DNA from: Acidobacteriota bacterium | GTDB lineage: Bacteria; Acidobacteriota; UBA6911; RPQK01; JANQFM01 | Assembly: GCA_041630155.1 (NCBI GenBank) | Contig: JBFKLX010000002.1 | Span: forward strand, 3,769-67,768 | Direction of reading: 5' to 3' | Length of the DNA stretch: 64,000 bases | Shown: one piece after another, positions 23,253-57,367 of the stretch | Layout: each line of letters begins with the position of its first letter | Position numbering within the stretch: the first letter of the stretch is position 1 | The notes under the pieces: model-generated | What the model saw: the letters and a program-made list of their open reading frames with translations, nothing else | Database searches by the model: none | Told to the model about the DNA's origin: nothing | Translations under genes and position numbers: made by a program

Positions 23253-23652
23253 GCCGCCCCGCAGCGGCCCCTTCGCCCGAACCCAACCATCCGCGCGGCG
23301 GCCTGGCGTGCTTCCCCTCGCCGAAGTCCCGGCCAGGCGGCGGGGCATCGTTCTTTGCGGGTGGGGCCGGCGGGTTTTTTCGAGTCGGCGCCACCCTCAC
23401 CCGCTCCTCCAGCTTTTCGAATTTCTTCTCCCCGATGCCCCGAACATTCAGCAGGTCCTCGATCTTGCCGAAGCGACCGTTCTTCTCACGGTACTCCAGG
23501 ATTCGCTCCGCCAAGGCGGGACCGATGCCGGGCAAAGACAGCAGCTGACTGAGGCTGGCTTCGTTCAGGTCGATCTTGGGCTGGGGCCCGGCCCAGCACA
23601 AGGACATCACCAACAGCACGATCGGACCCGGGAACATCATGGTTCGTCTCAT
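23236..23652 (-). CDS. comEA: ComEA-like helix-hairpin-helix DNA-binding competence protein
   Basis: TM/signal segment, then '[35 protein letters not shown]...[17 protein letters not shown]', a tandem HhH. The start is placed at MRRTMM (M18 of the track ORF). Confidence 0.75.
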
Positions 23653-23824
23653 TTTCGGCCTCCTCTCGAGGCGCCGCGGAATTGCGCCGCCTTCTTCATC
23701 CATTACGTCTCAGGTCGAAAATGAGCGAAATCTGGGAATCCCAAGCCCGAGGCTCGCGCCTGCAAGCGAGGTCCCACGTCACGAAGCGGAATCTTCAGGG
23801 AAACAGCGGCGAACAGCGCAGGGC

Positions 23825-24616
23825 TCAGCCGATCCAGCCGAAGTACCAACTCAGCAGGTCGTTTCCCCAAAGCACCGAAGCCATGGCCCCGGCGGCCAGA
23901 AAGGTCCCGAACGGGAGTTCGTAGAGGCGCCCCTTGCCCAAGGTGAGGATATAGGCGGCACCCAGCAGGGCTCCTGAAAGGGAGCCCAGCAGGATCGTCA
24001 ACCAGGCCATCCGCCAGCCCAGGAAGGCTCCGACCATGACCATCATCTTGATGTCCCCGAAGCCCATCCCCTCGATCTTTTTGAGCCGAAAGTAGAGCCA
24101 GGCCACCAGCCAGAGCATGCCCCCTCCGAAGACCGCTCCCAGGACACTGTTGAACAGTTGCGACGCGGCCGAGCCGCCTCCCAGGAACTCGGAAGCCTGC
24201 CAGGGCGCCGCCAGCAAACCGGCGGCCGCCCCGCTGAAGGTGATCAGATTGGGCAGCAGCCTCTCGAACAAGTCGATGAACATCAAGACGATCAGGAGGC
24301 AGAAGAACACAGCGTTGACGGCGAACACGACCGACAGCCCGAACTTCCAGTGCAGCAGCAGCAGGCAGCCTGCCGTCAGAAGCTCGACGACCGGATACAC
24401 CCAGCTGATAGCTGCCTGGCATCCGCGGCAGCGGCCCCTCAGGAGCAGATAGCTGAGGACGGGAATGTTCTCCCAGGCGCGGATCAAGCGCCCGCAGTGC
24501 GGGCAGCTGGAGCGAGGGGTGACGACCGACTGGCTTCGGGGCAGCCGGTGGATGCAGACGTTGAGAAAACTCCCGATCACGAGCCCGAACAGGACCACGG
24601 CCAGCGGCGTCAACAT
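23825..24616 (-). CDS. pilD: Prepilin peptidase (type IV leader peptidase/N-methyltransferase, A24 family)
   Basis: 'GLVIGSFLNVCIHRLP', the 'CPHCG...CRGC' zinc tetracysteine, and a multi-TM region carrying catalytic Asp residues. The start is placed at M23 of the track ORF. Confidence 0.9.
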   Translation of the reverse strand: MLTPLAVVLFGLVIGSFLNVCIHRLPRSQSVVTPRSSCPHCGRLIRAWENIPVLSYLLLRGRCRGCQAAISWVYPVVELLTAGCLLLLHWKFGLSVVFAVNAVFFCLLIVLMFIDLFERLLPNLITFSGAAAGLLAAPWQASEFLGGGSAASQLFNSVLGAVFGGGMLWLVAWLYFRLKKIEGMGFGDIKMMVMVGAFLGWRMAWLTILLGSLSGALLGAAYILTLGKGRLYELPFGTFLAAGAMASVLWGNDLLSWYFGWIG

Positions 24617-24822
24617 CCGCCGATTATACCGTGACCGGTTGGTGACTCCGGCCTCCCGGCCGACGATTCCCGGAAAGGGCACGCCCAGACGGCTCGAGCC
24701 TCAACCTTTTCGCGAACTGGGACCCGGGGAGAGGCGCCGCCCACACCCGGGCGAGGAGGAAGGAGGTGGGGGGAGAACAGGCCTCAGGAGGCGATGGCTC
24801 ACCCCCTGAGGCAACACGATGA

Positions 24823-28250: not shown

Positions 28251-28838
28251 ATGGTGAACAGGAAGGATGAGCCGATGAGTTGGGACCTCGAGCACGAATC
28301 CTGGATTTGCAGACGGAGAACCCCTCCAGCGGACCTCCCGAAGGTGGATCGGCCTCGGGGCAGCCCGAAGGCGCCCGCCGGCCCCCCCTCGTTGACAGCC
28401 GCCCGGCGTCCCCAGCAGCACGGGTTCCAGTTGTTGGATCTCATGCTCACCTGCCTGCTGGTGGCCTTCTTGGCCGTCTCGGGTCTTCCCTTCCTGCGAG
28501 ACCTGTCCCTGCAGCAGAAACAAGTGGCCGCCTGCGATCTGTTCGTGTCGACGCTCTCCCAAGCGCGTTCCCTGGCGATTTTCCGCAACCTCCCCGTGGA
28601 GGTGCTGGTCGAGCCGCCGGGACGTTTCGCCTCGAGCGCGCGCTTCGAGGGTGAGCCAATCGTCTGGCGTCTTCTGCCCGAGCCGGTCGTCTTCCAACAA
28701 TTTCCGCGCCGATCCGTGACCTTTCACCCGCGGGGGACCGCTGCGCCCGGCGGGACCTTCGTCCTCAGCACGGGCCGGGGCGGTTTCAAGATCGTTGTCG
28801 CGGTCTCCGGCCGCATACGCTGGAGCCGGCTGCGATGA
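28251..28838 (+). CDS. gspH: GspH/FimT-like minor pseudopilin (prepilin-type N-terminal domain)
   Basis: Prepilin cleavage motif 'G|FQLLDLMLTCLLVAF' (Asp at +5). The C-terminus 'VTFHPRGTAAPGGTFVL' resembles the GspH/FimT beta-domain. The true start may be an internal TTG that would give an 11-residue leader. Confidence 0.6.
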   Translation: MVNRKDEPMSWDLEHESWICRRRTPPADLPKVDRPRGSPKAPAGPPSLTAARRPQQHGFQLLDLMLTCLLVAFLAVSGLPFLRDLSLQQKQVAACDLFVSTLSQARSLAIFRNLPVEVLVEPPGRFASSARFEGEPIVWRLLPEPVVFQQFPRRSVTFHPRGTAAPGGTFVLSTGRGGFKIVVAVSGRIRWSRLR

Positions 28839-28860
28839 GAAATCAGCGAAGGTCAGAAAG

Positions 28861-29208
28861 ATGAGTTTCTCAGTACTCACGCGGCCAGCGGGGAATCCCG
28901 GCACGAGGCGCAGGGCCGGCTTCAGCCTTCTGGAAGTGCTCATCGCGGCTTCGCTGTTCACCGTGGCGGCGGGAGTTCTCCTCCATGAACTGGCCTTCTC
29001 CTACCGCCACTACAGCCTGGCTCGAGACGACTGGAAAGCTGCTTTGGAGCTCTGGAATCGAGCCGGTCGTTGGCGGGCCGGGGGTACTACCAGCACGTCC
29101 GAGAACGCCCAGATCCGGGGCCGAACAGCGCCCCTGCACCGGATCCGCTTCGAAACCGCGAGCGCCGGTCGAACTCTCACCTGGGAGGTGTGGCATGTTC
29201 ATCCCTGA
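28861..29208 (+). CDS. gspI: GspI-like minor pseudopilin
   Basis: Leader 'MSFSVLTRPAGNPGTRRRAG' followed by 'FSLLEVLIAASLF', a canonical G|F..LE prepilin N-terminus. About 115 aa, matching GspI size. Confidence 0.65.
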   Translation: MSFSVLTRPAGNPGTRRRAGFSLLEVLIAASLFTVAAGVLLHELAFSYRHYSLARDDWKAALELWNRAGRWRAGGTTSTSENAQIRGRTAPLHRIRFETASAGRTLTWEVWHVHP

Positions 29209-29824
29209 ATTGCCCCCATGCACAGCCGGTTGCGAGCCATCGAGCTCACCCTCCGCTCCCGGCGGTTCGGCCTCAATCGGGGCTTCTCTGGTGGAATTAC
29301 TGGTCGCTCTGGGTCTCTCGATTCTCTTGTCAACGGCTCTCCTTTCCTGGGTTTGGAGTTATCAGCAGTGGAGCGGCCGGCTGAGCCGTGCCCTGGAAAG
29401 AGACGAGAACCTGCGTCTGGCGCCCGTCCTGCTGGCCGGTTACCTGTCTGGGGCCGGCAACCAGCGCTGGCGCCACGGCTGGCCCGGGCTGGAATGGACC
29501 GGGGCTGGGCTCCACGTTCAGGCCGACATCGAAGGCCCGAACGGGTTTCCCGACGGGAAGTTGGAGGGACGATTCGAGCGCTTCTGGCTTCGTCAGCAGG
29601 GGCACCAGTTCCGTCTCCGGAGCGGGCGCGGCGGCTACCAGCCCCTCCTGACTCGCGTCTCCGGCTGGGCAATCGACCGGCCCACATCCCAGCTGCTGAA
29701 GGTCAGCGTTCAGGGGCGGGCCCTGGCGGCTCCGGGGCAGAGCCGGGTGGGGCTGGACGAGAGCCTGCAACTGGAGTTCTTCCTGCCCAACTTCCGTTCC
29801 AGCCTGTTCCCGGAGGAGCCATGA
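29195..29824 (+). CDS. gspJ: GspJ-like minor pseudopilin
   Basis: 'G|ASLVELLVALGLSILL' is a prepilin-type N-terminus with Glu+5. About 209 aa. The start overlaps the upstream gene's stop. Confidence 0.6.
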   Translation: MFIPELPPCTAGCEPSSSPSAPGGSASIGASLVELLVALGLSILLSTALLSWVWSYQQWSGRLSRALERDENLRLAPVLLAGYLSGAGNQRWRHGWPGLEWTGAGLHVQADIEGPNGFPDGKLEGRFERFWLRQQGHQFRLRSGRGGYQPLLTRVSGWAIDRPTSQLLKVSVQGRALAAPGQSRVGLDESLQLEFFLPNFRSSLFPEEP

Positions 29825-32159: not shown

Positions 32160-35009
32160 GTGTCCACGATGGCGAGCCGGCGGACGGTCTCCAATCGGTT
32201 TTCCTGGTCGATCAGGGCCCTGTTGCCCCTGTGTTTGCTCACACCCGCGCCGGCTGCCGGACAAGCCCCGCCCACTCCGACGCTCGTGACCCCGGTCTTC
32301 CTGGGCGGCTTGAACCGAGATCCTCAACTCGGCCTCCGAGAGAGTGTCGGGCAATCCCGGCCTGGCAGCCTCCTCGTTTCCGAAGTCGACTCGGCCGTCG
32401 GCTGGATCAAGGAGGTTCGAGAACTGGGCTTCTCCCGCCCCCAAAGCCCTTTCGGCCAGGCCAAGCAGCTGCAGTGGACGGGCAGTGCAGAGGCCTCCTT
32501 CTCGTTCCAATTCCGGGGACTCGCTCCGCCCCAACTGGCCCGCCGAGCCAACCGGGGTTTTCTCGTCTTCAATTTGAGAGTCACGAGTGAAACACGGACC
32601 GATTTGCGAGTTGGGATCCGCTGCGCAGGCGTCGTCTTCCATTGCCTCACCGAGGTCACCCTCACCACCGAAGACCTTCCGGCCAGGGAGGTCTGGCAGA
32701 CCTTCCGCATCCCCGTTCACCCGCTCCCCCAGTTCACGGTGAGACCTGGACTCTCCCACGACTCCAAGGAACTTCCCCACCAAGGCGGTCAATCCGTCAT
32801 CTCTTTTCGAACTCGAGGCGCCACTCCGATGACGCTCGAATTGGCCTCGGTCCGGCTGGAAAAGTACGCCTCCGGCTGGAGCTTCGCCGAAAGCCGCGCC
32901 TCCGACCTGCTGCCGGAGATGACACTGGCGGAGAAGGTCGGCCAGATGATCATGGTCACCATCGACGCGTCTCCCGACTTCTTTCCCTCGGCGATGGCTC
33001 AATTCGGCCTGGGCGCGACCTTGATGGGGGGCGGCGCGGTTCCCGTGGACGGGGAACGAAACTCCCTGGATCGCACCGTGGAGTCCTTCGCCGCTTCTTT
33101 CGACGCCTTTCAGCGAGGCGCCCTGGCGACCCGGCTGGCCATTCCCGCGCTGAACGGCTGGGATTCGGTCCATGGCGCCTCCAATTCTTCAGGCACCACC
33201 GTGTTCCCTCATCAAATCGGCCTGGGTGCGACTCGAAATTCCGACCTGGTCCGCCGGATTGGCGAGATCACGGCTCGGGAATCGAGGGCTGGCGGTGCAA
33301 ATCTGGCTTTTTCGCCCGTCCTGGACGTGGCACGCGATCAGCGCTGGGGCAGAACCTACGAGAGTTTCAGTGAGGATCCCGAAATCGTCACTCGAATGAC
33401 CAGCCTCATCGACGGCTTGCAGGGGACGAGCGGGGCTGGGGCTGCGGAAGTCCTGGGCCCCCAGGGCGTTCTGGCTACCGCCAAACACTACCCGGGCGGG
33501 GGCTCGACCGACTTCCAGCTCCCCGATGTCTGCCGAGTGGCCGCCGCGCAGTGCCCCGGTTTTCATCAAATGACAACCCTGGACGGTAGAGACTCGACAC
33601 TCTCCGAACAGGATCTGCGAGCCATCCACCTGCAGCCTTTTCAGGAGGCGGTCCGCCGCGCAGTCGGGCTCGTCATGGTTGGCTACAGCGGCTGGAACGG
33701 CCTGGAAGCCCACGCTCACCGCTTCTTGATCACCGACCTGCTGAAAGGGGAACTGGGCTTCCAGGGGGTCGTGCTCTCGGACTGGGACGGCGACGGCGAA
33801 GTCGACCCGGCCAGCCCGCGTGACGGAGCGATCGAAGTAGTCGAGGCCGGGATCGACCTGCTCATGTTGCCCTTCCTCGAGGAGGTCTCGGGCGTGACCC
33901 AGGCCCTCATGACCCAGGTGCCGGAAACCAGAATCGACGACGCCGTCCATCGCATCTTGCAGGCCAAATTCCGCGCCGGCCTGTTCGACATCCCCTTCTC
34001 GCAGCCGGGACTTCGCAGCACTGCCCGATCCGAGGGGCACCTGCAGACGGCCCGTCAGGCCGTTCGGGAGTCACTGGTTCTGTTGAAGAACGACGCAGCC
34101 ACCCTGCCCCTGGCCCCCTCCCGAAAGATCTACCTGGCGGGAAAGGCCGCCGACAACCTGGGAATTCTGCTGGGAGGGTGGAGTCTCACCTGGCAGGGCG
34201 TGATCGACCCGGAAGACCAACGACGCCCCACAGGAACCACCATCCGCCAAGGCCTGGAGCGACTCCTGGGTGCGGACGATGTGATCTTCAGCCCGGACGG
34301 ATCGCTGCCCCTGGCCGGCGCTGAGGCGGGAATCGTGGTGGTGGGCGAGTATCCCTATGCAGAAGGCTGCGGGGATATCGAGAACCGGGTCTGGTGGTGT
34401 CCCTTCGCCAAGCCTCCGCCCACGCCCGGGAGCGTTGTGGTGACCGAGACCAGACCGCCGGGATTCGAGGCAGGTCTGTCGACGCTGCTGCCGCCGTCAC
34501 ACTCCATGAGCCTGGAAACGGACCGGTTCACTCACGTCTTTCCTTCCGGCGTCTTTGCCTCCAGCCCCGTCGAAGCCGACTACCTGATCGACCCCGACTC
34601 GGATTCCCGGCTGGTGGACCGGGTCTGTTCCGCGGTGCATGCAGCCGGAAACCCGTGTGTGGTGATCCTGGTCTCGGGGCGGCCCCTGTTCGTCGACCAG
34701 GAAATCGCGCAGGCGGACGCCTTCGTCGCGGCCTGGCTACCCGGTTCGGAGGGGGGAGACGGCATTGCCCAACTTTTGCTCCAGGACTGCGAGGGCGAGG
34801 TCGCGGCCGGTGACTGTGACTTCACCGGGACACTTTCCCACACCTGGCCCGCCCGCCCGGAGGGATCGGACTCCCCTGCCCTGGACTATCGCCCCCAGAA
34901 CATTTTCGTGGGCCAAAACGGCAGCCTGGACCGGGTTCTCGAGGTCAACGGCCAGCCCCTCCTGGTCGGATACGGGCTCAGCTACGACGGCCCGATCCGG
35001 AGGGATTGA
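32160..35009 (+). CDS. Secreted glycoside hydrolase family 3 protein with a roughly 260-aa N-terminal domain of unknown function
   Basis: Signal peptide. The GH3 N-domain motifs 'LAEKVGQM', 'FPHQIGLGATRN', 'LDVARDQRWGRTYESFSEDP' and 'VVLSDWDGDG' begin about 270 aa into the protein. A GH3 C-domain follows. Confidence 0.8.
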   Translation: MSTMASRRTVSNRFSWSIRALLPLCLLTPAPAAGQAPPTPTLVTPVFLGGLNRDPQLGLRESVGQSRPGSLLVSEVDSAVGWIKEVRELGFSRPQSPFGQAKQLQWTGSAEASFSFQFRGLAPPQLARRANRGFLVFNLRVTSETRTDLRVGIRCAGVVFHCLTEVTLTTEDLPAREVWQTFRIPVHPLPQFTVRPGLSHDSKELPHQGGQSVISFRTRGATPMTLELASVRLEKYASGWSFAESRASDLLPEMTLAEKVGQMIMVTIDASPDFFPSAMAQFGLGATLMGGGAVPVDGERNSLDRTVESFAASFDAFQRGALATRLAIPALNGWDSVHGASNSSGTTVFPHQIGLGATRNSDLVRRIGEITARESRAGGANLAFSPVLDVARDQRWGRTYESFSEDPEIVTRMTSLIDGLQGTSGAGAAEVLGPQGVLATAKHYPGGGSTDFQLPDVCRVAAAQCPGFHQMTTLDGRDSTLSEQDLRAIHLQPFQEAVRRAVGLVMVGYSGWNGLEAHAHRFLITDLLKGELGFQGVVLSDWDGDGEVDPASPRDGAIEVVEAGIDLLMLPFLEEVSGVTQALMTQVPETRIDDAVHRILQAKFRAGLFDIPFSQPGLRSTARSEGHLQTARQAVRESLVLLKNDAATLPLAPSRKIYLAGKAADNLGILLGGWSLTWQGVIDPEDQRRPTGTTIRQGLERLLGADDVIFSPDGSLPLAGAEAGIVVVGEYPYAEGCGDIENRVWWCPFAKPPPTPGSVVVTETRPPGFEAGLSTLLPPSHSMSLETDRFTHVFPSGVFASSPVEADYLIDPDSDSRLVDRVCSAVHAAGNPCVVILVSGRPLFVDQEIAQADAFVAAWLPGSEGGDGIAQLLLQDCEGEVAAGDCDFTGTLSHTWPARPEGSDSPALDYRPQNIFVGQNGSLDRVLEVNGQPLLVGYGLSYDGPIRRD

Positions 35010-35362
35010 GTTCGAGTGTCCCCGTCGGCGCGCGGTTCCCCGCGAAGAGTGGCGTCAGTTGCCGGTTTTTTGCGTCTTCCGAGGCGCCCATCGGTATGAA
35101 TCTTGCAACTAAGTTTTTTAGAGCTCGGCCGCCCGGGCGAGCCGTCCTCTCCGTTGCCGCCGCCGGTTGCCCGGTGAGACTGGGAGCCCGTTCGAGAAAG
35201 GCCGGCCTGAGCTCCCATCGTGGGGAATCGCCCTCGCGGTTGGTCTTACGGGTGAATCCACCCGTAATTGGTCGAGTTGGCCCACGACGCATCGGGCCAA
35301 CTCGGCCCTCGAAGCACCGTGGCTGCCAGCCGCGAGCGAACGATCTGGAACCGAGAACGACC

Positions 35363-35941
35363 ATGCTCGAGATTCGCTTTCATGGCCGAGGGGGACAAGG
35401 GACGGTCGTGGCTTCAGAGATTCTGGCCGTGGCCCTCTTCCAGGAAGGCAAATTCGTACAAGCTTTTCCCGCCTTCGGAGTGGAGCGGCGGGGCGCTCCG
35501 GTGGCCGCTTTTCTCCGTTGTGACGAGCGCCCGATTCGCCTGCGCTGTCAGATTGAAAGTCCCCATCACGTCGTGGTCCTGGACCCCACCTTGATCCGGG
35601 CAGTCGACGTCACGGCGGGACTCCAGCCCGGCGGGAGCTTGTTGATCAACAGCGAATGCCCTCCGGAGAGCTTCGAGGAGTTCCGGGCCGGAGGCTGGCA
35701 GGTCGCCACCGTGAACGCTTCCGGACTGGCGCTCCGGCATCACCTGGGGGCGCGAACACACCCGATTGTCAACACAGCGATCCTGGGGTCTTTTTCCCGG
35801 GTCACCGGAATGGTCGGTTTGAACTCCATCCTGGAGGCGATCGCCAGCGAAGTTCCCCTGCAGCCCGAGGACAACGTCGCAGCTGCACGCGAGGCCTACC
35901 AGGAGGTGCTTTTCGAAGCCGCCCCTGTTTCAGGAGGGTGA
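35363..35941 (+). CDS. porG: 2-oxoacid:ferredoxin oxidoreductase gamma subunit
   Basis: 'HGRGGQG' gamma-subunit motif. About 190 aa. It sits immediately upstream of the delta, alpha and beta subunits. The start is placed at the MLEIRF methionine (residue 120 of the track ORF). Confidence 0.8.
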   Translation: MLEIRFHGRGGQGTVVASEILAVALFQEGKFVQAFPAFGVERRGAPVAAFLRCDERPIRLRCQIESPHHVVVLDPTLIRAVDVTAGLQPGGSLLINSECPPESFEEFRAGGWQVATVNASGLALRHHLGARTHPIVNTAILGSFSRVTGMVGLNSILEAIASEVPLQPEDNVAAAREAYQEVLFEAAPVSGG

Positions 35942-35942
35942 C

Positions 35943-37631
35943 GTGAACCGCGAGACTCGTTTCGCCACCGCATCCGATTTGCCGCCCATGGCAGTGTCCA
36001 GGTCCGATACGACCGCCAACAAGACCGGGAGCTGGAGATATCTGCGGCCGGTGATCCGCGAAAAGCTCGCTCCCTGCCGCCATGCCTGTCCCGCTGGGAC
36101 AGATCTTCCGCGGGTCTTGCGGATGATTGGTGAGGGACGATGGAGAGAGGCCCACCAGCTCATTCTCGAGGAGAACCCTCTGCCTGGCGTGTGCGGCCGG
36201 GTCTGTTACCGCCCTTGCGAAACCGCCTGCAACCGCCGCCACTTCGACGAAGCCGCCTCGATCCAGGCTCTGGAGCGCTTCGTCGCCGACGTCTGTTTCG
36301 ACCTGCCGCCGGAGGCGGCCCAGCCCCAACGCAGGAAAGAGCGTATCGCCATAATCGGCACTGGACCCGCCGGGCTTTCGTGCGCCTATTTTCTGGCCCG
36401 CGAAGGGTTTCCAGTCACCATGATCGAAGCAGCATCGAAACCCGGGGGCATGCTCCGCACGGGAATTCCACGATACCGGCTGCCGCGCCGCGTCCTGGAT
36501 CGTGAAATCGGGAACATTGCCCGGCTCGGCGTCCAGATCCTGCTCGACTGCCGAGTGGGGGAACAGGTCACCCTGCAACAGCTCCAACAGGCCTTCGAGG
36601 CAATCTTCGTGGCCACGGGAGCCCACCGCAGCGTCAGTCTTGATCTCCCCGGGGGAAACCGGGCCAAAATCATGCCGGGGCTGGAGTTTTTGAAGCTGGT
36701 CAACGCCGGCCAGCCTCCCGAAATCGGCAAAGAAGTCCTCGTCATCGGCGGCGGCAATACCGCCATGGACGCCGCCCGCGCGGCCTTACGCCTGCGGAGC
36801 CGGCCGCTGGTCGCTTACCGTCGCAGCAGGGCCGAAATGCCCGCAGTTCCGGACGAGGTCGAGCAAGCCGAAAGCGAAGGCGTCGCGTTCCAGTTTCTGG
36901 CCTCGCCTCTGAGATTGCGGAAACGAAACGGCCGGATCGAGGTGGAGATGATCCGCATGGAGCTGGGCGAAATGGACAGCTCAGGCCGCCCCCGGCCGGT
37001 TTCGGTCCCGGGCTCCGAGTTCACTTTGATCGTCGATTCAGTTCTCGAGGCGGTGGGGGAAGGCTCTGAGCTGGCCGACCTGGCCCAAGGTCTTCTGGTC
37101 TCTGAGAAAGGCTCGCAGGTGCTCAGTGAGAAAGAGTCGCTGCAGTTTCTCGAAGCGGGAGGCCTGTTGGTCGGAGGGGACGCCGCTACCGGCGCCGGCA
37201 CGGTGGTGGAAGCCATCGCCTCTGGAAAGAGGGCGGCGCGTCAGATCGTGAGCCGCTTCTCACGGGAGCGGGAGGTCGTGCGGCCGGCGGAAGAGCCCGG
37301 CACCGGGATCCCGTTTTCCGACCTTCACCTGGAGACCTTCACCCGCAGCCCCCGCAAAGACCCCCCTCATCGAAGCGTGGCCGAGCGAATCGCGAGATTC
37401 ACCGAGGTGGTTGGACCTCTCGACGCCGCGGCAGCTGTGGCCGAGGCGAGGCGCTGCTTCTCGTGCGGGGTCTGCAATCAATGCGACAACTGCTGGGTGT
37501 TTTGTCCCGAAGGAGCGGTTTCCCGAGGCGCGGACGGCTACCGGCTCAACCTCGACTACTGCAAGGGATGTGGGATCTGCGTGCAGGAATGCCCCGGGGG
37601 GGTGATCTCACTGGTCCAGGAGGGACAATGA
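35943..37631 (+). CDS. Fusion protein: GltD/NfnB-like NAD(P)H:FAD oxidoreductase with C-terminal 2x[4Fe-4S] ferredoxin (POR delta-like) domain
   Basis: Collinear with the glutamate synthase small subunit: 'GVCGRVCYRPCETAC', 'ERIAIIGTGPAGLSCA', 'GGMLRTGIPRYRL', 'VLVIGGGNTAMDAARAA', 'GGDAATGAGTVVEAIASGKRAA'. The C-terminus 'CFSCGVCNQCDNCWVFCP...CKGCGICVQECP' carries two CxxCxxCxxxCP ferredoxin motifs. Confidence 0.8.
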   Translation: MNRETRFATASDLPPMAVSRSDTTANKTGSWRYLRPVIREKLAPCRHACPAGTDLPRVLRMIGEGRWREAHQLILEENPLPGVCGRVCYRPCETACNRRHFDEAASIQALERFVADVCFDLPPEAAQPQRRKERIAIIGTGPAGLSCAYFLAREGFPVTMIEAASKPGGMLRTGIPRYRLPRRVLDREIGNIARLGVQILLDCRVGEQVTLQQLQQAFEAIFVATGAHRSVSLDLPGGNRAKIMPGLEFLKLVNAGQPPEIGKEVLVIGGGNTAMDAARAALRLRSRPLVAYRRSRAEMPAVPDEVEQAESEGVAFQFLASPLRLRKRNGRIEVEMIRMELGEMDSSGRPRPVSVPGSEFTLIVDSVLEAVGEGSELADLAQGLLVSEKGSQVLSEKESLQFLEAGGLLVGGDAATGAGTVVEAIASGKRAARQIVSRFSREREVVRPAEEPGTGIPFSDLHLETFTRSPRKDPPHRSVAERIARFTEVVGPLDAAAAVAEARRCFSCGVCNQCDNCWVFCPEGAVSRGADGYRLNLDYCKGCGICVQECPGGVISLVQEGQ

Positions 37632-38794
37632 CCACGCTATCGGCCCAAGCGAAAGTAATGACGGGGAATCACGCCGTCTCCCACGGCGCCCTGCTGTCGC
37701 GCGTGCAGGTGATCTCTGCCTACCCGATCACACCTCAGACGCAAGTCGTCGAACGGCTGGGCCGTTTCTGCGAAGAGGGTCGGCTGGAAGCCCGGTTCAT
37801 CAGAGTGGAGTCGGAACACTCGGCCATGGCGGCCCTGGTCGGCGCCGCCACAGCCGGCGCGCGAACCTTCACCGCCACCTCTTCGCAAGGCCTCGCCCTG
37901 ATGCACGAGATGCTGCACTGGGCAGCCGGGGCCAGGCTGCCGATCGTGATGGCCAACGTCAACCGCGCCCTCGGCCCTCCCTGGTCGGTCTGGACCGACC
38001 AAAACGACAGCCTCTCACAACGGGACACGGGCTGGATGCAAATCTACTGCGAGAGCAACCAGGAGGTGCTCGACAGCCTGATCCAGGCCTACCGGGTCGC
38101 CGAGAAGGTCTCGCTTCCAGTCATGCTGGTACTGGACGCCTTCGTGCTGTCGCATACTGCCGAGCCGGTCTCACTGCCGAACCAGGAGACGGTGGACTGC
38201 TATCTGCCCCCGTACCAGCCCGAGTGGAAGCTGGACATCGCGGACCCGCGCAGCTTCAGCGGCCTCACGACACCGGACACCTACATGGAATTCCGGTTCA
38301 AGATGCAGGAGGCGATGGAGCGAGCGCTGGAAGAGTTCGAAGCTGCCGATGCCGAGTTCCAGGCGCTGTTCGAACGCCGCTACGGCCTGGTGGAAGCCTA
38401 TCGCTGCGAGGATGCAGAGCTGATTCTGGTGACCTCCAGTACCGCCACCAGCACGGCACGAGTCGTCATCGACGAGTTGCGCGAGCAGGGACGTCCCATC
38501 GGGCTGCTGAAGATCCGGCTCTTTCGCCCCTTCCCGGCCCGGCAGGTCCTCGAGGCCCTGTCCACGGCGCGAAAGGTGGCCGTGCTGGACCGGAACATCG
38601 GCTTCGGAGCCGGCGGGATCTTCGCGCAGGAGGTCAAGGCCGCCCTGTACAACCACCTCCAAATCCCGGTCTTCGGCTTCGTGGCGGGACTTGGGGGCCG
38701 CGACATCACACCCGCCGTCCTGCGGGAGGTGATCGACTACGCGACGGATCATGCCCAGCCGGAAGACCTCGTGTGGATAGGGGGAAAGCCATGA
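37628..38794 (+). CDS. porA: 2-oxoacid:ferredoxin oxidoreductase alpha subunit
   Basis: 'VISAYPITPQT' alpha-subunit signature. About 389 aa. ATGA overlap with the upstream gene. Confidence 0.85.
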   Translation: MTTLSAQAKVMTGNHAVSHGALLSRVQVISAYPITPQTQVVERLGRFCEEGRLEARFIRVESEHSAMAALVGAATAGARTFTATSSQGLALMHEMLHWAAGARLPIVMANVNRALGPPWSVWTDQNDSLSQRDTGWMQIYCESNQEVLDSLIQAYRVAEKVSLPVMLVLDAFVLSHTAEPVSLPNQETVDCYLPPYQPEWKLDIADPRSFSGLTTPDTYMEFRFKMQEAMERALEEFEAADAEFQALFERRYGLVEAYRCEDAELILVTSSTATSTARVVIDELREQGRPIGLLKIRLFRPFPARQVLEALSTARKVAVLDRNIGFGAGGIFAQEVKAALYNHLQIPVFGFVAGLGGRDITPAVLREVIDYATDHAQPEDLVWIGGKP

Positions 38795-39705
38795 GTCAGG
38801 TCCATTTCCCGTTTCCCGAAGAAGAACTCCTCAGCACGGGGCACCTGGGTTGCCAGGGCTGCGGCGCCGCTCTGGCCATGCGCCACGTGCTCAAAGGCCT
38901 GGGCGAGAAGACCGTCGTGGTAATCCCGGCTTGTTGCTGGTCAATCATCGCGGGCCCCTTCCCCTATTCGGCCCTCCGCGTCCCCGTGTTGCACACGGCT
39001 TTCGAGACAGCAGCCGCGTCGGCTTGCGGGGTGCGGGCCGCGCTGGACTGCAAGGGGGACCGCGAGACCACGGTCATGGCTTGGGCGGGAGACGGCGGGA
39101 CCTTCGACATCGGACTTCAGGCACTTTCCGGAGCCGCCGAGCGGAACGAGAACATCCTTTACGTGTGCTACGACAACGAGGCCTACATGAACACGGGTGT
39201 CCAAAGCAGCTCGGCAACCCCCTGGGGCGCCTGGACTACCACGACTCCCGATTACAAGAAACAGTCCAAGAAGGACATCATGCGGATCATGGCGGCTCAC
39301 GGGATCCCCTACGCCGCAACCGCATCCGTGGCTCACCCGGATGACCTGGTGCGGAAAGTGCAAAGCGCCCGGGACATCGAAGGGATGCGTTTCCTGCACG
39401 TGCTGGCGCCCTGCCCACCGGGCTGGAAGATCCCCTCCGAGCTCGCGATCAAGCTGGCCCGTCTGGCCGTCCAGACACGGATGTTTCCCCTCTTCGAAAT
39501 CGAAGACGGCCTGCGCTGCCGGCTCAGCCCGGTGGCCGACCCGCAACCGCTCGAAGAGTACCTGCGCCTGCAGGGCCGCTTCAGCCATCTGAGCGAGCGG
39601 GACGTCCAGCACCTGCAACGGATGGTGGACGAGCGCTGGGAGCAGCTCGAGAACTGGGCGGCACGCGAGCCCGTCTCGACGCCGGCCGTGCCGGCGAAGT
39701 CGTAA
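38791..39705 (+). CDS. porB: 2-oxoacid:ferredoxin oxidoreductase beta subunit (TPP-binding)
   Basis: 'CQGCG' motif. 'GDGG.FDIG...N' is a TPP-binding GDG...N motif. 'VCYDNEAYMNTG'. ATGA overlap with porA. Confidence 0.85.
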   Translation: MSQVHFPFPEEELLSTGHLGCQGCGAALAMRHVLKGLGEKTVVVIPACCWSIIAGPFPYSALRVPVLHTAFETAAASACGVRAALDCKGDRETTVMAWAGDGGTFDIGLQALSGAAERNENILYVCYDNEAYMNTGVQSSSATPWGAWTTTTPDYKKQSKKDIMRIMAAHGIPYAATASVAHPDDLVRKVQSARDIEGMRFLHVLAPCPPGWKIPSELAIKLARLAVQTRMFPLFEIEDGLRCRLSPVADPQPLEEYLRLQGRFSHLSERDVQHLQRMVDERWEQLENWAAREPVSTPAVPAKS

Positions 39706-39920
39706 AAGCCAGCATCCCTCGCCAAACCCGCGCGCCAGCGCTCCTGGTCGACGGCCCGGCCGATCCGCGACTCTTCGCCGGCGGCCTGGCACCCCAGCCG
39801 AGGCGTTCCCATTCACCCCCTCGCCGTCCATCGCGCCCCTGCCGATCCACCGATCCCAGGCCTCCACTGCCAGCCTTCGCCATCCCCTCTCCACAGCAAC
39901 CGAGTCGCTGTCCAGAGAGG

Positions 39921-39965
39921 CTCGATTTTCACTCACGTGTCACATTAGATTCTAGAATCTAAATA
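39921..39965. repeat. AT-rich 45-bp element, copy A (ctcgattttcactcacgtgtcacattagattctagaatctaaata)
   Basis: Direct near-identical copy of the element at 40530-40573. Strongly AT-rich in a roughly 65% GC genome. Contains the -10-like sequence TAGAAT. Confidence 0.7.
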
Positions 39966-40140
39966 TCTTCATAAAATAGAACTCTTCTCCTATTAGATCC
40001 CGTACTGGACACCCGGCTGAAAGAGAATTGCCCTGTCCCCTTTCCCGTCCCCTCTCCCGCTTGTGCTCGGGGGTTCGACCCGGCGTCGGTCCGATTGTGC
40101 CCTGTCCCCAGCCGGCCATCCGCACGGGCGGATCTGTGCC

Positions 40141-40192
40141 CTGTCCCCAGGTTTTTCGCTGTCCCCAGGTTTTTCTGTCCCCAGGTTTTTCG
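40141..40192. repeat. Tandem repeat, three units of CTGTCCCCAGGTTTTT(CG)
   Basis: Three adjacent units of 18, 16 and 18 bp seen directly in the sequence. Each unit embeds the second half of the dispersed motif (TGTCCCC). Confidence 0.8.
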
Positions 40193-40529
40193 ACCCGGTT
40201 TCCAGCTGTGACCCCGGGAGGTCTGGAGGTCTGAAGGCAGACGGAGAGTGTGTGAATCCTGCCCTGTCCTCATTCTCCGTTCGTTCCCACCTCGTCCCCG
40301 TCAGCCGGCCTCGGTCCGACTTCTGCCCTGTCCCCAGCCTGTCTGCCGCCTACGTCGAGGGCCCAGACGAGGCTCAACCGTTGGCCGGCATCCTCACACA
40401 CGGTCGACTCGTTGCGATTCACAACCCACTCCCACCCTCATCGCTGCCCTACCTCTCTGACGACTCGAAGCCCACCCTCGCCACCCTCGCCACCCTCCCC
40501 ACAAACCCCGAATGGCTGCCTGACACGCG

Positions 40530-40573
40530 CTCGACTTTTACTCATTTTTCACATTAGAACCTATAATCTAAAT
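40530..40573. repeat. AT-rich 45-bp element, copy B (ctcgacttttactcatttttcacattagaacctataatctaaata)
   Basis: Direct copy of the 39921 element (about 80% identity). Contains a perfect TATAAT. Confidence 0.7.
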
Positions 40574-41373
40574 AGCCGTAAAAAAGTTATTAATCTTAGG
40601 CGCAATTCCGTTCCCTGATGGAAACGAGCTGCCACAGAGTTGTCCAGCCCCTGTCACCCGGCCCGTCCGATTCTGCCCTGTCCCCAGTCTGCCCAGCCTG
40701 GCGAGAGCCAAGGGAAATTCACGAAGCTGCTGGAATCCTGGCCCGCGCCGCCTGGCAGGCGTCACATCTGCCCTATCTCCCAAGAGCCTTCGATCGGGTT
40801 TCAGCGGTGAGCTCCTGGGGGTCTGGATGCAACGGTTGTCCTGAATCTTGCCCTGTCCCCTATGATTCCCTTCTGCGCACTCTGCCGGGGACGGAGAATC
40901 GCTGAGGCGCGGCTGCCTGGTTGGGTGATCTGACCCGTGGGGGGTGCTTATTACACTGCCTGCTGGAAGCATCACTGTTCACACACTCCGAACCCACCTC
41001 TTCAATCTGAACAGTCCCCCGCGCTCCCCTTGCGCTCTGAGGATGACCCGGGCTGGCTCGGGTGGCCGCGCCTCGAATGACTCTCTGGCACATTGGGCTG
41101 GCTGCCTCGGCTCGGCCGGAAGGCCCTTCAGCACAAGGCTTCCCGCGCTTCGCGACGCATCAAATGCGAATCGCAGGCCAATCGAGCCGCAGCAGCTCCC
41201 GGGCCGGGATCGACCGCCTTCTGCGCCGGTCATCCCCGATCCGAGGGGACTCGGCAACCGATTGGCGAGCCGACAGCGGTATAGAAGTTGCTTCGCTGTC
41301 TGCATTCGACGGATTAGAGAATCCGGTACACGCAGAATGCTTTCGAGCCGCATTTCTGGAAGGGGGTCCAGCT

Positions 41374-43071
41374 ATGACAAGGCGAACTTTACGACTCAGC
41401 TTACTGGCAATCACGATCTCCGTGCCAGCCTTCGTGCGGGCCGATGGAGACTATCGCTCGGTCGACACGGAGGGTCCTGAGAGCCGCTCTGGCCACACCC
41501 TGAGCGGAGTGTACATGTTCGGAGGTCGGAGCGACGAAGGAGACGTCTTCGATGAACTCTGGGAGTTTGGCTTTGATGGGGAGACTGGCTTTGATCCTGA
41601 ATGGAACGAAGTGCCTTTCATTGACCCCTGGCCCGCGGGGCGCTGGGGTCACGTCTCCTGGGTCTCGGACCGCTACCTTTACATTGCGGGCGGCCGCGGC
41701 GCCGACTCCCAGTTCATCCCGGACGCGTGGCGCTTCGACACCGTCGCCAGGACCTGGCAGGAGATCGAATTCTATCCAGGCCCGCACCAGGTCGCCGGAG
41801 GAGCCGCCTCACACGACAACAACGGCTACCTGTTTGCCACCGAGGACGGCGCGATCCATACGTACGACGAGGAGACCAACCAATGGGAGACGCTACTCCC
41901 CGACAGCGGGCCCACCCAGCGCTCTCATAGCACCGTGGTCCAGAATATCCCCCCCGGACCCGCCAATGGTCAGCAGCCGCTTCAGAATGGCAACTCGTCG
42001 AAAGCCTGGGTGATCGGCGGTGCCAACGCGTCTGGCATCTCGAGCGAAGTTTGGGAGTTCGACTTCGCCACTCAAAGCTGGACCCGGCGGGCCGATCTGC
42101 CCGTGGCTCTGTCCAGCCTGGCCGGAGCTTACGATGATCAGCGAGATCGAGTGCTGGTTTTTGGCGGCGTGAGCCCCGAGGGTTTCAGCCGAGCCACCTG
42201 GGAGTACGATCCCGCCACGGATTCCTGGACGCGACGTCTCGACATGCCTGAGGCCCTAGTACTGTCCGGGGCCACGGCCACTGGCGAAGGGGGAACAATC
42301 ATCTTCGGGGGCCGCAGGAGCGACCAGACCGCTTCGGGACGAACACTCGCCTATCGCTCCGGCGAGACCCTGTACATGGCTCAGTTCGGCAACGGCCAGG
42401 GGTTCACCAGCGACATCGTGTTGGCCAACCCCACCGCCGACCAGACAGCTTCGGGCACGATTTCCTTTGCCGGAAACGAAGGACTTCCCCTGGAGGTCAC
42501 GATCGTGGGGGACACTGGATCAGCGTCCGCTCATCGAATCATTCCCCTTCAGGCCGGTTCAGAGGTGGAGTTCTCCATCCCTCCGCGAGCCAGCATCACG
42601 CTGTCGACGGACGGCCAAGGCGATTTGGTCGAGGGCTCCGCACGGGTTCTCTCAAACCTCCGCCTGGGAGGAGTGATCCGCTTCAGCATCCCCGCAATCG
42701 GGATTGCGGGCGTGGGGGCGAGTCCCCCGATGGACGGTTTCATTGTCCCGGTGCGACGCCAGGCGGGAGGTATCAACACCGGTCTGGCCATCTTCAGCCG
42801 GGAAGTGAGGCCGGTCACTCTCGTGCTGACGCTCTACAGTGATGGTCAGCAGATTGCGACCACGACGATCGAAGATTTCGTGGCCCGGGCCCACCTGGCC
42901 CGCTTCATCGATGGCCTCTTTCCCGAGGTCGACACCACCGACTTCGTAGGAACAGTGGTGGTCGAAGTGATCGACGGCCAAGTCACTGCCACGGCCCTTG
43001 AGCTCGGCCGCCAGCCCGGCCAGTTCACCACTCTACCGGTGACTCCCCTGGAGCCGAGCCCCAGTTCGTGA
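41374..43071 (+). CDS. Secreted Kelch-repeat (galactose-oxidase-like beta-propeller) protein with a C-terminal beta-rich domain
   Basis: Signal peptide 'MTRRTLRLSLLAITISVPAFVRA'. Repeated 'GG...W.FD/YD....W' Kelch blades. The start is placed at residue 105 of the track ORF. Confidence 0.7.
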   Translation: MTRRTLRLSLLAITISVPAFVRADGDYRSVDTEGPESRSGHTLSGVYMFGGRSDEGDVFDELWEFGFDGETGFDPEWNEVPFIDPWPAGRWGHVSWVSDRYLYIAGGRGADSQFIPDAWRFDTVARTWQEIEFYPGPHQVAGGAASHDNNGYLFATEDGAIHTYDEETNQWETLLPDSGPTQRSHSTVVQNIPPGPANGQQPLQNGNSSKAWVIGGANASGISSEVWEFDFATQSWTRRADLPVALSSLAGAYDDQRDRVLVFGGVSPEGFSRATWEYDPATDSWTRRLDMPEALVLSGATATGEGGTIIFGGRRSDQTASGRTLAYRSGETLYMAQFGNGQGFTSDIVLANPTADQTASGTISFAGNEGLPLEVTIVGDTGSASAHRIIPLQAGSEVEFSIPPRASITLSTDGQGDLVEGSARVLSNLRLGGVIRFSIPAIGIAGVGASPPMDGFIVPVRRQAGGINTGLAIFSREVRPVTLVLTLYSDGQQIATTTIEDFVARAHLARFIDGLFPEVDTTDFVGTVVVEVIDGQVTATALELGRQPGQFTTLPVTPLEPSPSS

Positions 43072-43145
43072 AGAATGAGTCACGGGGTACGGGAAGGAGC
43101 ACGAGGGGCAGGGCACTTTGTCCGGCTTGCCTCCTACAAAAAAAT

Positions 43146-43231
43146 TGCCCTGTCCTCACTCCCGAGAGTGCCCTGTCCCTGTCTCCAACTAGACTCCCAA
43201 CTAGAAGGTCGATGAAGTTTGCCCTGTCCCC
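43146..43231 (+). repeat. Second cluster of the TGCCCTGTCC[CT]C motif, three copies
   Basis: Copies at about 43146, 43169 and 43220. They lie between the convergent Kelch gene and the Cys-rich protein gene. One further copy sits at 51110-51121. Confidence 0.7.
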
Positions 43232-43362
43232 AAAAGATAGTCCCCAAAAGATAAAGAGAAGAGAGAACGAAATCTGGAGTGAGCTTCCTCCCAGGGCAGG
43301 GGTATTCTCTCTCGCGCGAGTCTGAGGAATGGACTGGGTTCTTCGTGAGAGTGTTCAATTCA

Positions 43363-43803
43363 TCACTGCTTCACGACCACCTCGAATATGCACGTGCCAC
43401 CAACGGAACAGCTCCCCTCGCATGCGATGATTCCGTCGATGATCCTGACCTTGCAGTTGCTGGAACCACTCGAAGAACAGGTGCAACTGAAAGTGCCCTT
43501 GACTCCGGCTGCTCCCTGCTTTCTCAAAACCAGCCTGTTTCTGGCCGCGATTTCGAATTCGTAGCCTTTCTCGAGGCTCAGTCGATTTCCCTCCAGCTTC
43601 ACTCCCTCGGGAACTCTTCGTCGTTGGGTCACCGTTCGTCCGGGCTGCTCCTCGGACCCCTCGAAACTCTCGGCTGCGGCAACGACTTTGGCGCGTTCTC
43701 GGGGAGTCGAAGGGTAGGTGTGACCTGAACTTGTTGCTTTCTTTGCGATCGCCGGGGCCATCAGAATGACCGCCAGTGCCGGAAGCAGAATTCTCCCGCT
43801 CAT
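43363..43803 (-). CDS. Small secreted Cys-rich hypothetical protein (146 aa)
   Basis: Strong RBS, GGAGGAACaaaATG. Signal peptide 'MSGRILLPALAVILMAPAIA'. Six cysteines in the last 40 residues, 'CTCSSSGSSNCKVRIIDGIIACEGSCSVGGTC'. GC content and codon usage are lower than in neighbouring genes. Confidence 0.6.
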   Translation of the reverse strand: MSGRILLPALAVILMAPAIAKKATSSGHTYPSTPRERAKVVAAAESFEGSEEQPGRTVTQRRRVPEGVKLEGNRLSLEKGYEFEIAARNRLVLRKQGAAGVKGTFSCTCSSSGSSNCKVRIIDGIIACEGSCSVGGTCIFEVVVKQ

Positions 43804-44008
43804 TTTGTTCCTCCGTTTGTTTCAACTCGTTTCGTCAGGTCGGGATTCACCTTCCGCGAGAAGGCTTCACTGTTGCACTCCTTTCTAACCGAATCAGGTG
43901 GAAGTTTCAATGGGCCAGGTCTCTCTCGAGGCGAGGGCTCGGTGTGGTTGCACCGGAGTGGAGGTGCCGGAAAACTCCCGTTTCCCGCCACTGACGGCGC
44001 AACTCGGC

Positions 44009-44698
44009 TCAAGCGGGAACACTCATCGGTCGTCCGTTGTCCTTGGGTCCCAGGCCCAAGAGAAATGGAACGGCTCGTCTCGCCCACTGTCGGGGACTCG
44101 GATGGGAAGCCGCGCTTGGTCCAAAGCAGCTCTCCAACATCTGAGTGTGAATCACTCCTGGATTGAGAGGCACCGCCGCCATCCCTTCCGGTAATTCCTG
44201 GGCCAATGCGCGCGTCAGGCCTTCAATGGCCCATTTGGTCGCGCAATAGGGAGCCACCTCCCGCGACGTGGACCGCCCCCAGCCGGAACTGAAATTGACG
44301 ATCACGCCTCTGCCACGCTCGACCATCGCCGGTACGATGTGACGAACGAGGTGATACACGCCTTTGATATTGACATCCACGACCTTCGAAAACTCTTCGC
44401 CGGGGACTTCCCACAGGGGTGCGTTCCGGTTGATCAAAGCCGCGTTGTTGAGCAGCAAGTCGGGTGGGCCGAAATCGGCCAGGATGATTTCAGCCCAGCG
44501 GCGAACTTCCTCTTCGAGACACACATCGACGGTCTCGAAACGGTGCGGGCGCGGATAGCGATGGCGCAGTTCCTCAATCTGCTGTCGTGAGCGCGCACAG
44601 CCCAGCACGGTATGCCCGCGCCGAGCGAATCCATCCACCATCGCGCGTCCCAGGCCCCGGCTCGCACCAGTCAGCAAAACCCGTTTCGACTCCCCCAT
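44009..44698 (-). CDS. SDR family oxidoreductase
   Basis: 'VLLTGASRGLGRAM' Rossmann motif, 'NNAA', and YxxxK in 'YCATKWA'. Confidence 0.8.
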   Translation of the reverse strand: MGESKRVLLTGASRGLGRAMVDGFARRGHTVLGCARSRQQIEELRHRYPRPHRFETVDVCLEEEVRRWAEIILADFGPPDLLLNNAALINRNAPLWEVPGEEFSKVVDVNIKGVYHLVRHIVPAMVERGRGVIVNFSSGWGRSTSREVAPYCATKWAIEGLTRALAQELPEGMAAVPLNPGVIHTQMLESCFGPSAASHPSPRQWARRAVPFLLGLGPKDNGRPMSVPA

Positions 44699-50922: not shown

Positions 50923-51170
50923 CCCACCGGCTGAATGGGCTCAGGCTGCTGTGCCCGCTGGTCCTGGTGTTCCGATGGGTCGATCATCTTTCGCGGAGTC
51001 GCCACTCCGGATCCTGTCGATCCTGTGATCCCTCCCGAGACCCGGATTCGATTCCGGAGACAGGACAGGATCCTCCGAGCCTCGGCGGGGAAACCCGGTC
51101 GAGGGAACTTGCCCTGTCCCCCAAAATGGGGCACCAAGCCCCGCGTTGCTGCACGGGGCGGGGGCGGATG

Positions 51171-56410: not shown

Positions 56411-56481
56411 TCGGATCCTTCTTTCCGGTAACGATCGATCGAACCAACATTAAGTGGATCCGATTGGTCTTGCGTCGCTCG

Positions 56482-56946
56482 ATGATCCACGTCCGGGCAA
56501 ATGGGAACTTCTCCGTCGTATTCGACCCGCTGGCGGCGACTTCTGCACGCTTGGATGAATTTGTGCTGATTGAGCACCTCATTGAATACTCTCCTGACGG
56601 TGATGTAGCTCAGTCACTCCGAATGACTGATTGGCAAGAGGGAGCTGCCATCTGGTCGGTCTCGGCGGAGGCGCCCGACACAACGCTGGTACAATTGAGT
56701 CGCTTTTCTCCCTCGAGCGTAACAGTCTCCCGGGGCTTCGGCAACGAATCGGTGCGAAGTCTTTCCCTGCACCCGTCCCAATTGGTACGGGTCGGCCCAA
56801 GCGGGCAGCAGAGGGCGGTTGAACCAACGCCAGCTGAACGACTTCTGGGAACCACCGAGCAAGGGGACCTCGTGACCTGCACAGGAACTGACCAAGGTCA
56901 GTTGAAAGTGTATGCCGCACAAGCGAGACCGGGAGGCAGGCCGTAG
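56482..56946 (+). CDS. Possible small hypothetical protein (154 aa)
   Basis: An ATG-initiated ORF sits in an otherwise gene-less 950-bp gap. It has moderate GC and balanced composition. No motif support. Confidence 0.25.
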   Translation: MIHVRANGNFSVVFDPLAATSARLDEFVLIEHLIEYSPDGDVAQSLRMTDWQEGAAIWSVSAEAPDTTLVQLSRFSPSSVTVSRGFGNESVRSLSLHPSQLVRVGPSGQQRAVEPTPAERLLGTTEQGDLVTCTGTDQGQLKVYAAQARPGGRP

Positions 56947-57367
56947 TCGCTCTCGACGCACACCCACCACAATCTGTGCCCAGCGGCGTAATAGGGTAAG
57001 GTATCTGTTGACCGCCCAGGAATCGACGTAGGCTCCGAAGAAAGCCAGCTGTGTCCCGCCAGAGCCGAAAACTCTTGATTCACTCTATCCTCCTATGTTA
57101 CATTTCCGGCAATCCTACATATGGGATTCTCTGGTTTTCTCCAGCGGGGAGGGCTAAGCCGCTGATCGACAGCGGGGAGCTTTCTCGATTCGACCAGAGC
57201 GTGTAGTTTCAGCTGGAGAGAGTTCGGTCCCCTGTGCCGATCGGTGAAGTTGGGTTTTCCAGCGCACCGGTCAGATACTCGCCAGATCGCCACCCGGGGC
57301 TCGCAGGCCTTCCTGCCAAACCTCACCAGCCTCTTTTTTCGGGTTTCTAACGAGAGGAGGTTCTCAA

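Follow-up and report, generated by a model that had tools for sequence, protein, structure and literature searches.

The 1.67-kb interval at positions 39706-41373 of the 64-kb stretch of Acidobacteriota DNA analyzed here (the window) is real non-coding DNA, the longest such stretch in the window, and runs exactly from the stop codon of porB (ending at 39705) to the ATG (41374) of a gene for a Kelch-repeat protein. It is made of two diverged direct repeats, offset by ~609 bp and followed by a possible decayed third start, each with an AT-rich core and an array of a short C-rich motif. This motif is a genomic signal, native to the genome and not a local oddity, and the cores are best read, from their sequence, as rightward promoters of untranslated RNA. 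Our preferred reading, held tentatively and with less than even confidence, is that two non-coding units in the interval are transcribed rightward, perhaps into decoy RNAs or into long leader sequences of the Kelch gene. The locus matches none of the known families tested and is a lead rather than a discovery.

None of the open reading frames (ORFs) inside the interval has a codon-usage log-odds score above about 4, and most score far below zero; the GC content of these ORFs is flat over the three codon positions (gc1, gc2 and gc3 all about 0.6), whereas real genes of the window have a gc3 of 0.74-0.84 and a gc2 of about 0.45-0.5. A sliding six-frame score placed the longest low-coding stretch of the 64 kb at 39601-41601. 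Hidden coding, a small ORF or a ribosomally synthesized and post-translationally modified peptide was considered and rejected, given that the frame of the motif varies among its copies and that no start codon stands at leaderless distance. An earlier note on this DNA had drawn the same bounds and seen no credible ORF within them, and both statements were confirmed (exact bounds, no codon signal and no signal in GC at the third codon position, GC3). The locally AT-rich segments and several repeat families that it had reported were likewise recovered, the former as two segments of GC 0.30 and 0.28 and the latter as the motif, repeats of 16-18, 9, 12 and 8 nt and the ~609-bp macro-repeat.

GC falls to 0.30 at 39925-40000 and to 0.28 at 40534-40605, and no other 60-mers of the 64 kb are as AT-rich as two that lie in these segments (GC 0.27 and 0.23; next lowest 0.38). 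The two strongest C>G 80-mers of the 64 kb also lie in it, within 39755-39934 (maximum (C-G)/80 of 0.41) and 40370-40570, in a C-over-G bias that spans about 900 nt. This C-richness gives the - strand G-quadruplex potential: patterns of the G-quadruplex type (of the i-motif type when read on the + strand) were enriched, and of 18 - strand candidates with loops of 12 nt or fewer, 4 fall in the interval, which is 2.6% of the sequence.

The two repeat units were recovered by blastn as a match between 39747-39965 and 40354-40574, with 226 nt aligned at 68% identity (E = 2e-10). Overall the two units share 56% identity, which rises to 80% (25-nt windows) at the AT core and at one copy of the motif (motif B), and it is because of these peaks that core and motif look constrained. 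The locus is most likely lineage-specific and derived from an old tandem duplication of a ~0.6-kb module in which, from left to right, a C-rich, G-poor tract is followed by the AT-rich core and then by a body with the motif array. The features of the interval are the following.

39706-41373, no strand: whole non-coding region, with negative codon scores of internal ORFs and no GC3 periodicity; Pfam domains on its flanks
39747-39919, + strand: C-rich, G-poor tract 1 (C 0.47, G 0.24), just downstream of porB and homologous to tract 2
39920-40000, + strand: AT-rich core 1, putative rightward promoter P1 (GC 0.30), with TAGAAT at 39953-39958
40028-40343, + strand: motif array 1, with TGCCCTGTCC(C/T)C at 40029, 40098, 40137, 40260 and 40324
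40189-40271, + strand: block conserved between the units, TTCGAyCnGGTTTCCAGCnGTGA...CTGGnGGTCTGnAnGCA...TGAATCyTGCCCTGTCC, with its unit 2 counterpart at 40789-40860
40354-40528, + strand: C-rich, G-poor tract 2 (C 0.46, G 0.19), with the 9-nt tandem CCACCCTCG in 3.4 copies at 40472-40502
40529-40605, + strand: AT-rich core 2, putative rightward promoter P2 (GC 0.28), with the conserved block at 40549-40574 and TATAAT at 40562-40567
40641-40899, + strand: motif array 2, with exact copies at 40674 and 40849 and degenerate ones near 40641 and, as TGCCCTATCTCC, at 40768
40977-41095, + strand: possible decayed third C-rich tract, of weak similarity (CGAATGACTCTCTGGCAC versus CGAATGGCTGCCTGACAC) and without an AT core

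The invariant block of core 1 (39940-39965) reads TCACATTAGAttCTAgAATCTAAATA, and the core carries the inverted repeat TTAGA-N8-TCTAA. Written as the 26-mer TCACATTAGAnnCTAnAATCTAAATA, the block is identical in both units at all 23 specified positions, and the window holds these two matches where none is expected. Array 1 contains the half-motif CTGTCCCCAGGTTTTTCG three times in tandem at 40141-40192 (a 16-18-nt tandem repeat of 3 copies), with the threefold TGCCCTGTCCCCAG segment spanning 40136-40192, and array 2 contains a partial inverse motif copy, GGGGACGGAGAATC, at 40886-40899. Further tandem repeats of 12 nt (2.1 copies) and 8 nt (2.6 copies) lie in the interval.

The motif has the C-rich consensus (Y)TGCCCTGTCCCC(A), of 12-14 nt, and its core is preceded by a loose GA(A/T)(C/T) element. 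Its 11-mer core gave 16 matches with up to 1 mismatch against 3.9 expected, a count that none of 100 shuffles reached. About 11 copies lie in the interval, all on the + strand (seven in unit 1 and three to four in unit 2), with irregular start-to-start spacing (69, 39, 18, 16, 89 and 64 nt) and no helical phasing. Copies of TGCCCTGTCC are intergenic in 12 of 12 cases, at four separate loci, in a window that is 88% coding. Outside the interval, five motif copies were found in about 6.2 kb of other intergenic DNA, at three sites.

43145-43232, + strand: outlying cluster of three motif copies, between the convergent Kelch gene and a gene for a 146-aa protein
51109-51122, + strand: single outlying copy, between convergent ABC-transporter and sugar-transferase genes
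7790-7803, - strand: single outlying copy in the promoter gap between the divergent proB and aminotransferase genes, some 55 nt upstream of the -10 element (TACACT) of proB

In the literature, no match for the motif was found beyond a chance likeness to the human insulin-linked polymorphic repeat, a sequence that folds into i-motifs and G-quadruplexes. The window also encodes possible DNA-uptake or type IV pilus machinery, namely a ComEA-like HHH_3 protein, a prepilin peptidase and a GspH-like pseudopilin (23236-24682 and 28251-28838). The motif as a DNA-uptake sequence was set aside, with none in coding DNA and a density far below that of known uptake sequences.

The promoter reading of the cores draws on where the same hexamers occur elsewhere. 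TATAAT or TAGAAT is found 8 times in the intergenic 12% of the window and 4 times in the coding 88%, and all five intergenic occurrences outside the interval (7879+, 25919-, 46105+, 53631-, 52747-) precede a start codon of their own strand at a distance of 6-140 nt. The related hexamers TACAAT, TATAGT, TACACT and TATGAT precede other genes of the window. The cores carry TAGAAT (39953) and TATAAT (40562) inside the invariant block, with conservation in both units for the + strand reading alone, and in both units the inverted repeat straddles this -10 hexamer in the manner of an operator. No ATG, GTG or TTG was found at leaderless distance after either core hexamer. Since the hexamer marks promoters elsewhere and neither a start codon nor coding sequence follows it here, the cores are read as putative promoters of untranslated RNA.

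Many genes of the window appear to be leaderless, with a TAnAAT-type -10 element 6-10 nt upstream of the start (7879, 46105, 21376(-), 7735(-), 10136(-)) and a -35 element that is slight or absent, a pattern useful for gene annotation in this lineage.

If the cores are promoters, P1 and P2 would fire rightward from starts near 39965 and 40574 and would yield untranslated RNAs of roughly 0.4-0.6 kb that are C-rich and have little structure. Factor-dependent termination of the Rho type, in tract 2, would set the end of RNA 1, and RNA 2 would either terminate or extend into the Kelch gene as its leader of roughly 800 nt. Tract 1, a candidate Rho-utilization (rut)-type terminator region on the basis of its composition, would end the por operon in the same Rho-type way; as in a Rho terminator, C exceeds G and the predicted RNA is weakly structured downstream of a transcription unit. 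C-rich, G-poor, unstructured and untranslated RNA is the classical Rho substrate, and Rho termination is the simplest reading because the RNA is predicted to have these properties. The RNAs would display the motif many times, and the arrays might then serve as a concentrated binding platform (decoy or sponge) for a motif-reading factor, a role proposed because single motif copies sit at other intergenic or untranslated-region positions. We infer transcription, the RNA ends, the involvement of Rho and the sponge function from these features. The more specific proposal that the two units are paralogues in tandem, encoding a new type of decoy RNA that is long, C-rich and unstructured and whose 4-7 copies of UGCCCUGUCCCC titrate an RNA-binding protein or Rho, is quite unlikely, an estimate that includes the titrated factor also reading single motif copies in untranslated regions genome-wide in what would be an uncultured, Gemmatimonadota-like and probably host-associated bacterium.

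A number of observations weigh against two non-coding transcription units. A consensus sigma-70 scan of the region returned no promoter, and no -35 element was found at normal spacing, the best being TTyACT with a 19-nt spacer. In AT content the cores far exceed the window's other promoters, and they may have a role besides or instead of promoting transcription. No intrinsic terminator was found in the region and the RNA ends are guesses, the predicted unpaired probability at the motif positions is not clearly different from that of the remaining sequence, and the copy at 7790 (-), upstream of the proB -10, lies outside any predicted transcript. Finally, no sequenced near relatives covering the locus were found, and the comparison rests on the two units. 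The predicted + strand RNAs (from about 39965 and 40574) fold no better than shuffled sequences (z = +0.9), with - strand values of z = -0.06 and +0.43. The full span over both strands of both units, -0.06 to +0.94, speaks against a structured RNA and suits one that would display the motif unfolded and open to Rho. Searches against Rfam gave no match in the whole 64 kb at the gathering threshold and nothing inside 39706-41373 when 39000-44500 was searched at E<=5, and a tRNA/tmRNA scan of the 64 kb found none. The proposal of the earlier note that the region encodes RNA is thus upheld in part: the conserved -10-type hexamers with nothing coding downstream speak for it, and the lack of an Rfam match and predicted folds that do not surpass shuffled sequence in stability speak against it.

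Activity of P1 and P2 would make the interval a candidate locus for regulatory RNA, in a lineage without cultured members or described non-coding RNAs. The adjoining gene encodes a Kelch-repeat protein, which is secreted and belongs to a eukaryote-like class with links to host association. The motif would mark a regulon or a termination or stability signal that can be traced in the metagenome-assembled genomes (MAGs) of the group.

Sibling contigs from several NCBI MAGs (GCA_0415-0416 series) are exact or 99.6-99.9% identical, and all that reach the region carry this sequence. Those of four MAGs all break inside it, three at the 9-nt tandem CCACCCTCG (40469, 40470 and 40488) and the other at 40800; the locus is an assembly breakpoint for the species and may have copy-number heterogeneity. 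At greater distance, the threonyl-tRNA synthetase (ThrRS) encoded in the window has 78-81% identity to three MAG proteins and only 60-64% to Longimicrobium and Gemmatimonadetes sequences, the groups to which it places the lineage closest, and the next-best PorB proteins have 70-74% identity. The closest relative with the same por operon (L095, PorB 74% identical) keeps the four-gene order, has a convergent gene 22 nt after porB, and has no intergenic motif. The motif was also not found in 12 kb of the relatives with 78-81% ThrRS identity (L098 and L099) nor, beyond coding chance matches, in about 1.4 Mb of relatives. Homologues of the Kelch protein (37-40% identity) have ordinary upstream gaps of 250-365 nt. 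Genome contigs searched with PorB gave a best match of 68% identity, with the species absent and no motif in 80 loci, and two supposed paralogue contigs (P0031 and P0095) were rejected as belonging to other organisms. Scanning of metagenome contigs with the AT-core pattern gave one chance match in AT-rich DNA, viral contigs scanned with a motif pair and with the core gave coding chance matches or none, and blastn against plasmids and phages gave no match. Comparison with relatives, which the earlier note had put forward as a check, hence shows the region to be lineage-specific.

Among the alternatives, the interval could be clutter akin to repetitive extragenic palindromic (REP) sequences and bacterial interspersed mosaic elements (BIMEs), that is, a pile-up of a selfish or structural dispersed intergenic repeat without locus-specific function beyond spacing or terminating the por operon. 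We consider this somewhat unlikely. As expected of an extragenic repeat, the motif is strictly intergenic and dispersed, and convergent genes border two of the three outlying sites, as is seen with REPs. At the outlying sites the motif can form long hairpins with degenerate inverse copies at a distance of 25-60 nt (z of -1.9, -1.2 and -1.6), whereas in the main cluster an inverse partner exists for the last motif copy only (z 0.0). In the sibling MAG GCA_041625595.1, the motif copy at 40257 contains 5 additional nucleotides (CCTGC) that turn TGCCC-TGTCC into TGCCC-TGCCC-TGTCC, which shows slippage of the TGCCC pentamer sub-repeat; this, and the breaking of sibling assemblies at the 9-nt tandem repeat, would also suit such clutter. 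The motif itself, however, is not palindromic, and its ~11 copies in the region all have one orientation, unlike the alternating REPs of BIMEs. The forward arm is fixed and the inverse partners are degenerate, which points to sequence recognition rather than hairpin selection. REP-like clutter would also leave unexplained the AT cores, with an invariant 26-mer in units that are 56% identical, and no RAYT (Y1) transposase gene was found in the window. Were the interval only REP-like clutter, the finding would be an ordinary one that mainly explains why short-read assemblies break here.

The interval could instead act as DNA, as an array of binding sites for a regulator, a nucleoid- or partition-type protein or a polar barrier to replication or transcription, placed around two regulated promoters that control the Kelch gene. 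This is unlikely, although the direct-repeat substructure TGCCC-TGTCC(CC) in same-orientation arrays, the inverted repeat over the -10 of both cores and the motif clusters on both sides of the Kelch gene are what such an array would show. One copy lies where activators typically bind, about 70 nt before the transcription start of proB, and another abuts a TATGAT hexamer at 40861. The position of the motif relative to promoters is, however, inconsistent, with two outlying sites between gene 3' ends, and its spacing is irregular and without helical phase; no candidate DNA-binding, rep or par gene was found nearby.

The earlier note had further suggested the remnant or boundary of an integrated element. 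Cores and repeats would then be leftover att, arm or end sequences, and the Kelch gene, the 146-aa gene and a short-chain dehydrogenase/reductase (SDR) gene would be cargo. The nearest relative sharing the por operon lacks the region (the 22-nt gap mentioned above), the 146-aa and SDR genes have atypical codon usage, and the Kelch gene has motif clusters on either side. Horizontal acquisition, frequent among eukaryote-like proteins such as Kelch, was also counted in its favor. Even so, we regard an integrated element as very improbable: no integrase, transposase, tRNA, or rep or par gene was found in the 64 kb, inverted ends are missing, the flanking clusters are direct and not inverted, copies of the motif at 7.8 kb and 51.1 kb belong to unrelated loci, plasmid and phage sequences gave no similarity, and sibling MAG contigs show no presence/absence variation. 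The case for the roughly 4-kb islet that the note had drawn around the interval is weak: codon usage is ordinary in the Kelch gene (0.24 per codon versus 0.26 for porB) and scores low only in the 146-aa and SDR genes.

A chromosomal or plasmid-type replication origin, with AT-rich unwinding elements beside arrays of initiator boxes, was largely refuted: the two most AT-rich segments of the window do adjoin same-orientation repeat arrays, but the GC skew stays negative from 1 to about 58 kb and does not change sign at 40 kb, the region has no DnaA box at up to 1 mismatch, dnaA, dnaN and rep genes are missing from the window, box spacing is irregular, and the upstream genes point into the region. 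Two further candidates were rejected, namely a CRISPR array (only 12-14 nt are conserved, spacing is irregular and the motif also occurs outside the cluster; no Cas domains were found among the genes of the window) and a parS site (11 of 16 matches in core 1 only, not kept in core 2).

The por operon upstream of the interval (35006-39705, + strand) comprises porG, a gene for a GltD-like oxidoreductase, porA and porB; the GltD-like gene (35943-37631; Fer4_20, Pyr_redox_2 and a 4Fe-4S domain) sits between porG and porA. Downstream, the Kelch gene (41374-43071, + strand) encodes a secreted protein of 565 aa; the flanking genes were assigned with Pfam. The C-terminal ~230 aa of this protein (residues 329-560; 42358-43071) form a domain without a Pfam entry, with the pattern LYxAQFGNGxGxxSDIVLxNP...GIAGVG...VPVRRQAGGINTG...GQFTTLPV. 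The domain recurs at 50-59% identity in hundreds of multi-domain secreted proteins with FN3, LRR, SBBP or beta-helix domains, in some of them in tandem. The Kelch protein is one of several eukaryote-like repeat proteins in the window, together with a 575-aa ankyrin protein (58945-60672) and TPR/ANAPC3-like proteins (10190-10723 and 10680-11852), which suggests a host-associated lifestyle.

The neighborhood is otherwise one of chromosomal housekeeping, with genes for ThrRS, pyruvate phosphate dikinase, a transketolase-family protein, TsaE, ProB and an ABC exporter, and menaquinone-type radical-SAM genes. That nearly every other intergenic gap is under 300 bp, as the earlier note had it, is roughly correct; 56411-57367 (957 nt), 19152-19706 and 28839-29217 exceed this length. 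The first is an apparently non-coding gap between a HAAS-domain gene (-) and a di-haem oxidoreductase gene (+), with negative codon scores for its internal ORFs and -10-like hexamers at 56690 (+) and 56912 (-), and no copies of the C-rich motif were found in it. The second, of ~555 nt, lies upstream of the ThrRS gene (start set according to a 613-aa database protein) and could hold a leader or regulatory element; it gave no Rfam match.

Of the known systems that the interval calls to mind, whose features are general knowledge, the iteron and centromere arrays (parC of plasmid R1, the origins of pSC101 and RK2) share with it same-orientation short direct repeats beside an AT-rich segment or promoter. 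The interval differs from them in having no regular spacing (~11 or ~22 bp) and no adjacent par or rep gene, and in its chromosomal housekeeping context with the motif dispersed elsewhere in the genome. REP sequences and BIMEs of Enterobacteria and Pseudomonas are likewise short, intergenic-only repeats, often between convergent genes, single or in clusters of up to about a dozen, and some copies form a hairpin with an inverse partner as here. The unit described here is no imperfect palindrome, though, and its clustered copies keep one orientation around two AT-rich promoter-like cores, in a window without a RAYT gene.

With rut regions the interval shares C-rich, G-poor RNA, predicted to be weakly structured, just downstream of an operon, and its windows of this kind are the strongest in the 64 kb; here, however, the C>G bias is interrupted by the AT cores and by a specific motif, neither of which a simple rut region needs. 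The LhrC1-5 RNAs of Listeria and RsaE/RoxS of Firmicutes offer a parallel for tandem paralogous non-coding genes with repeated C-rich motifs exposed in the RNA. Those RNAs are about 100 nt long, with UCCC or CCCC in loops and clear intrinsic terminators, whereas the putative RNAs described here would be 0.4-0.6 kb and unstructured, with a much longer motif.

CsrB and RsmY/Z are protein-sponge RNAs of the Csr/Rsm type, and RsmX occurs in tandem copies in Pseudomonas. Common to these systems and to the interval as we read it are an untranslated RNA with its own promoter (here putative), one short motif repeated many times at irregular spacing, single copies of that motif in untranslated regions of mRNAs, and paralogues that may be tandem. 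The motif here is C-rich and 12-14 nt long, whereas theirs is GGA displayed in hairpin loops, and the putative transcripts of the interval, whose binding partner is likewise hypothetical, come without a predicted hairpin display, intrinsic terminator or Rfam match. Should the decoy-RNA proposal prove true, the locus would represent a Csr-like global post-transcriptional circuit built on an entirely different motif and partner.

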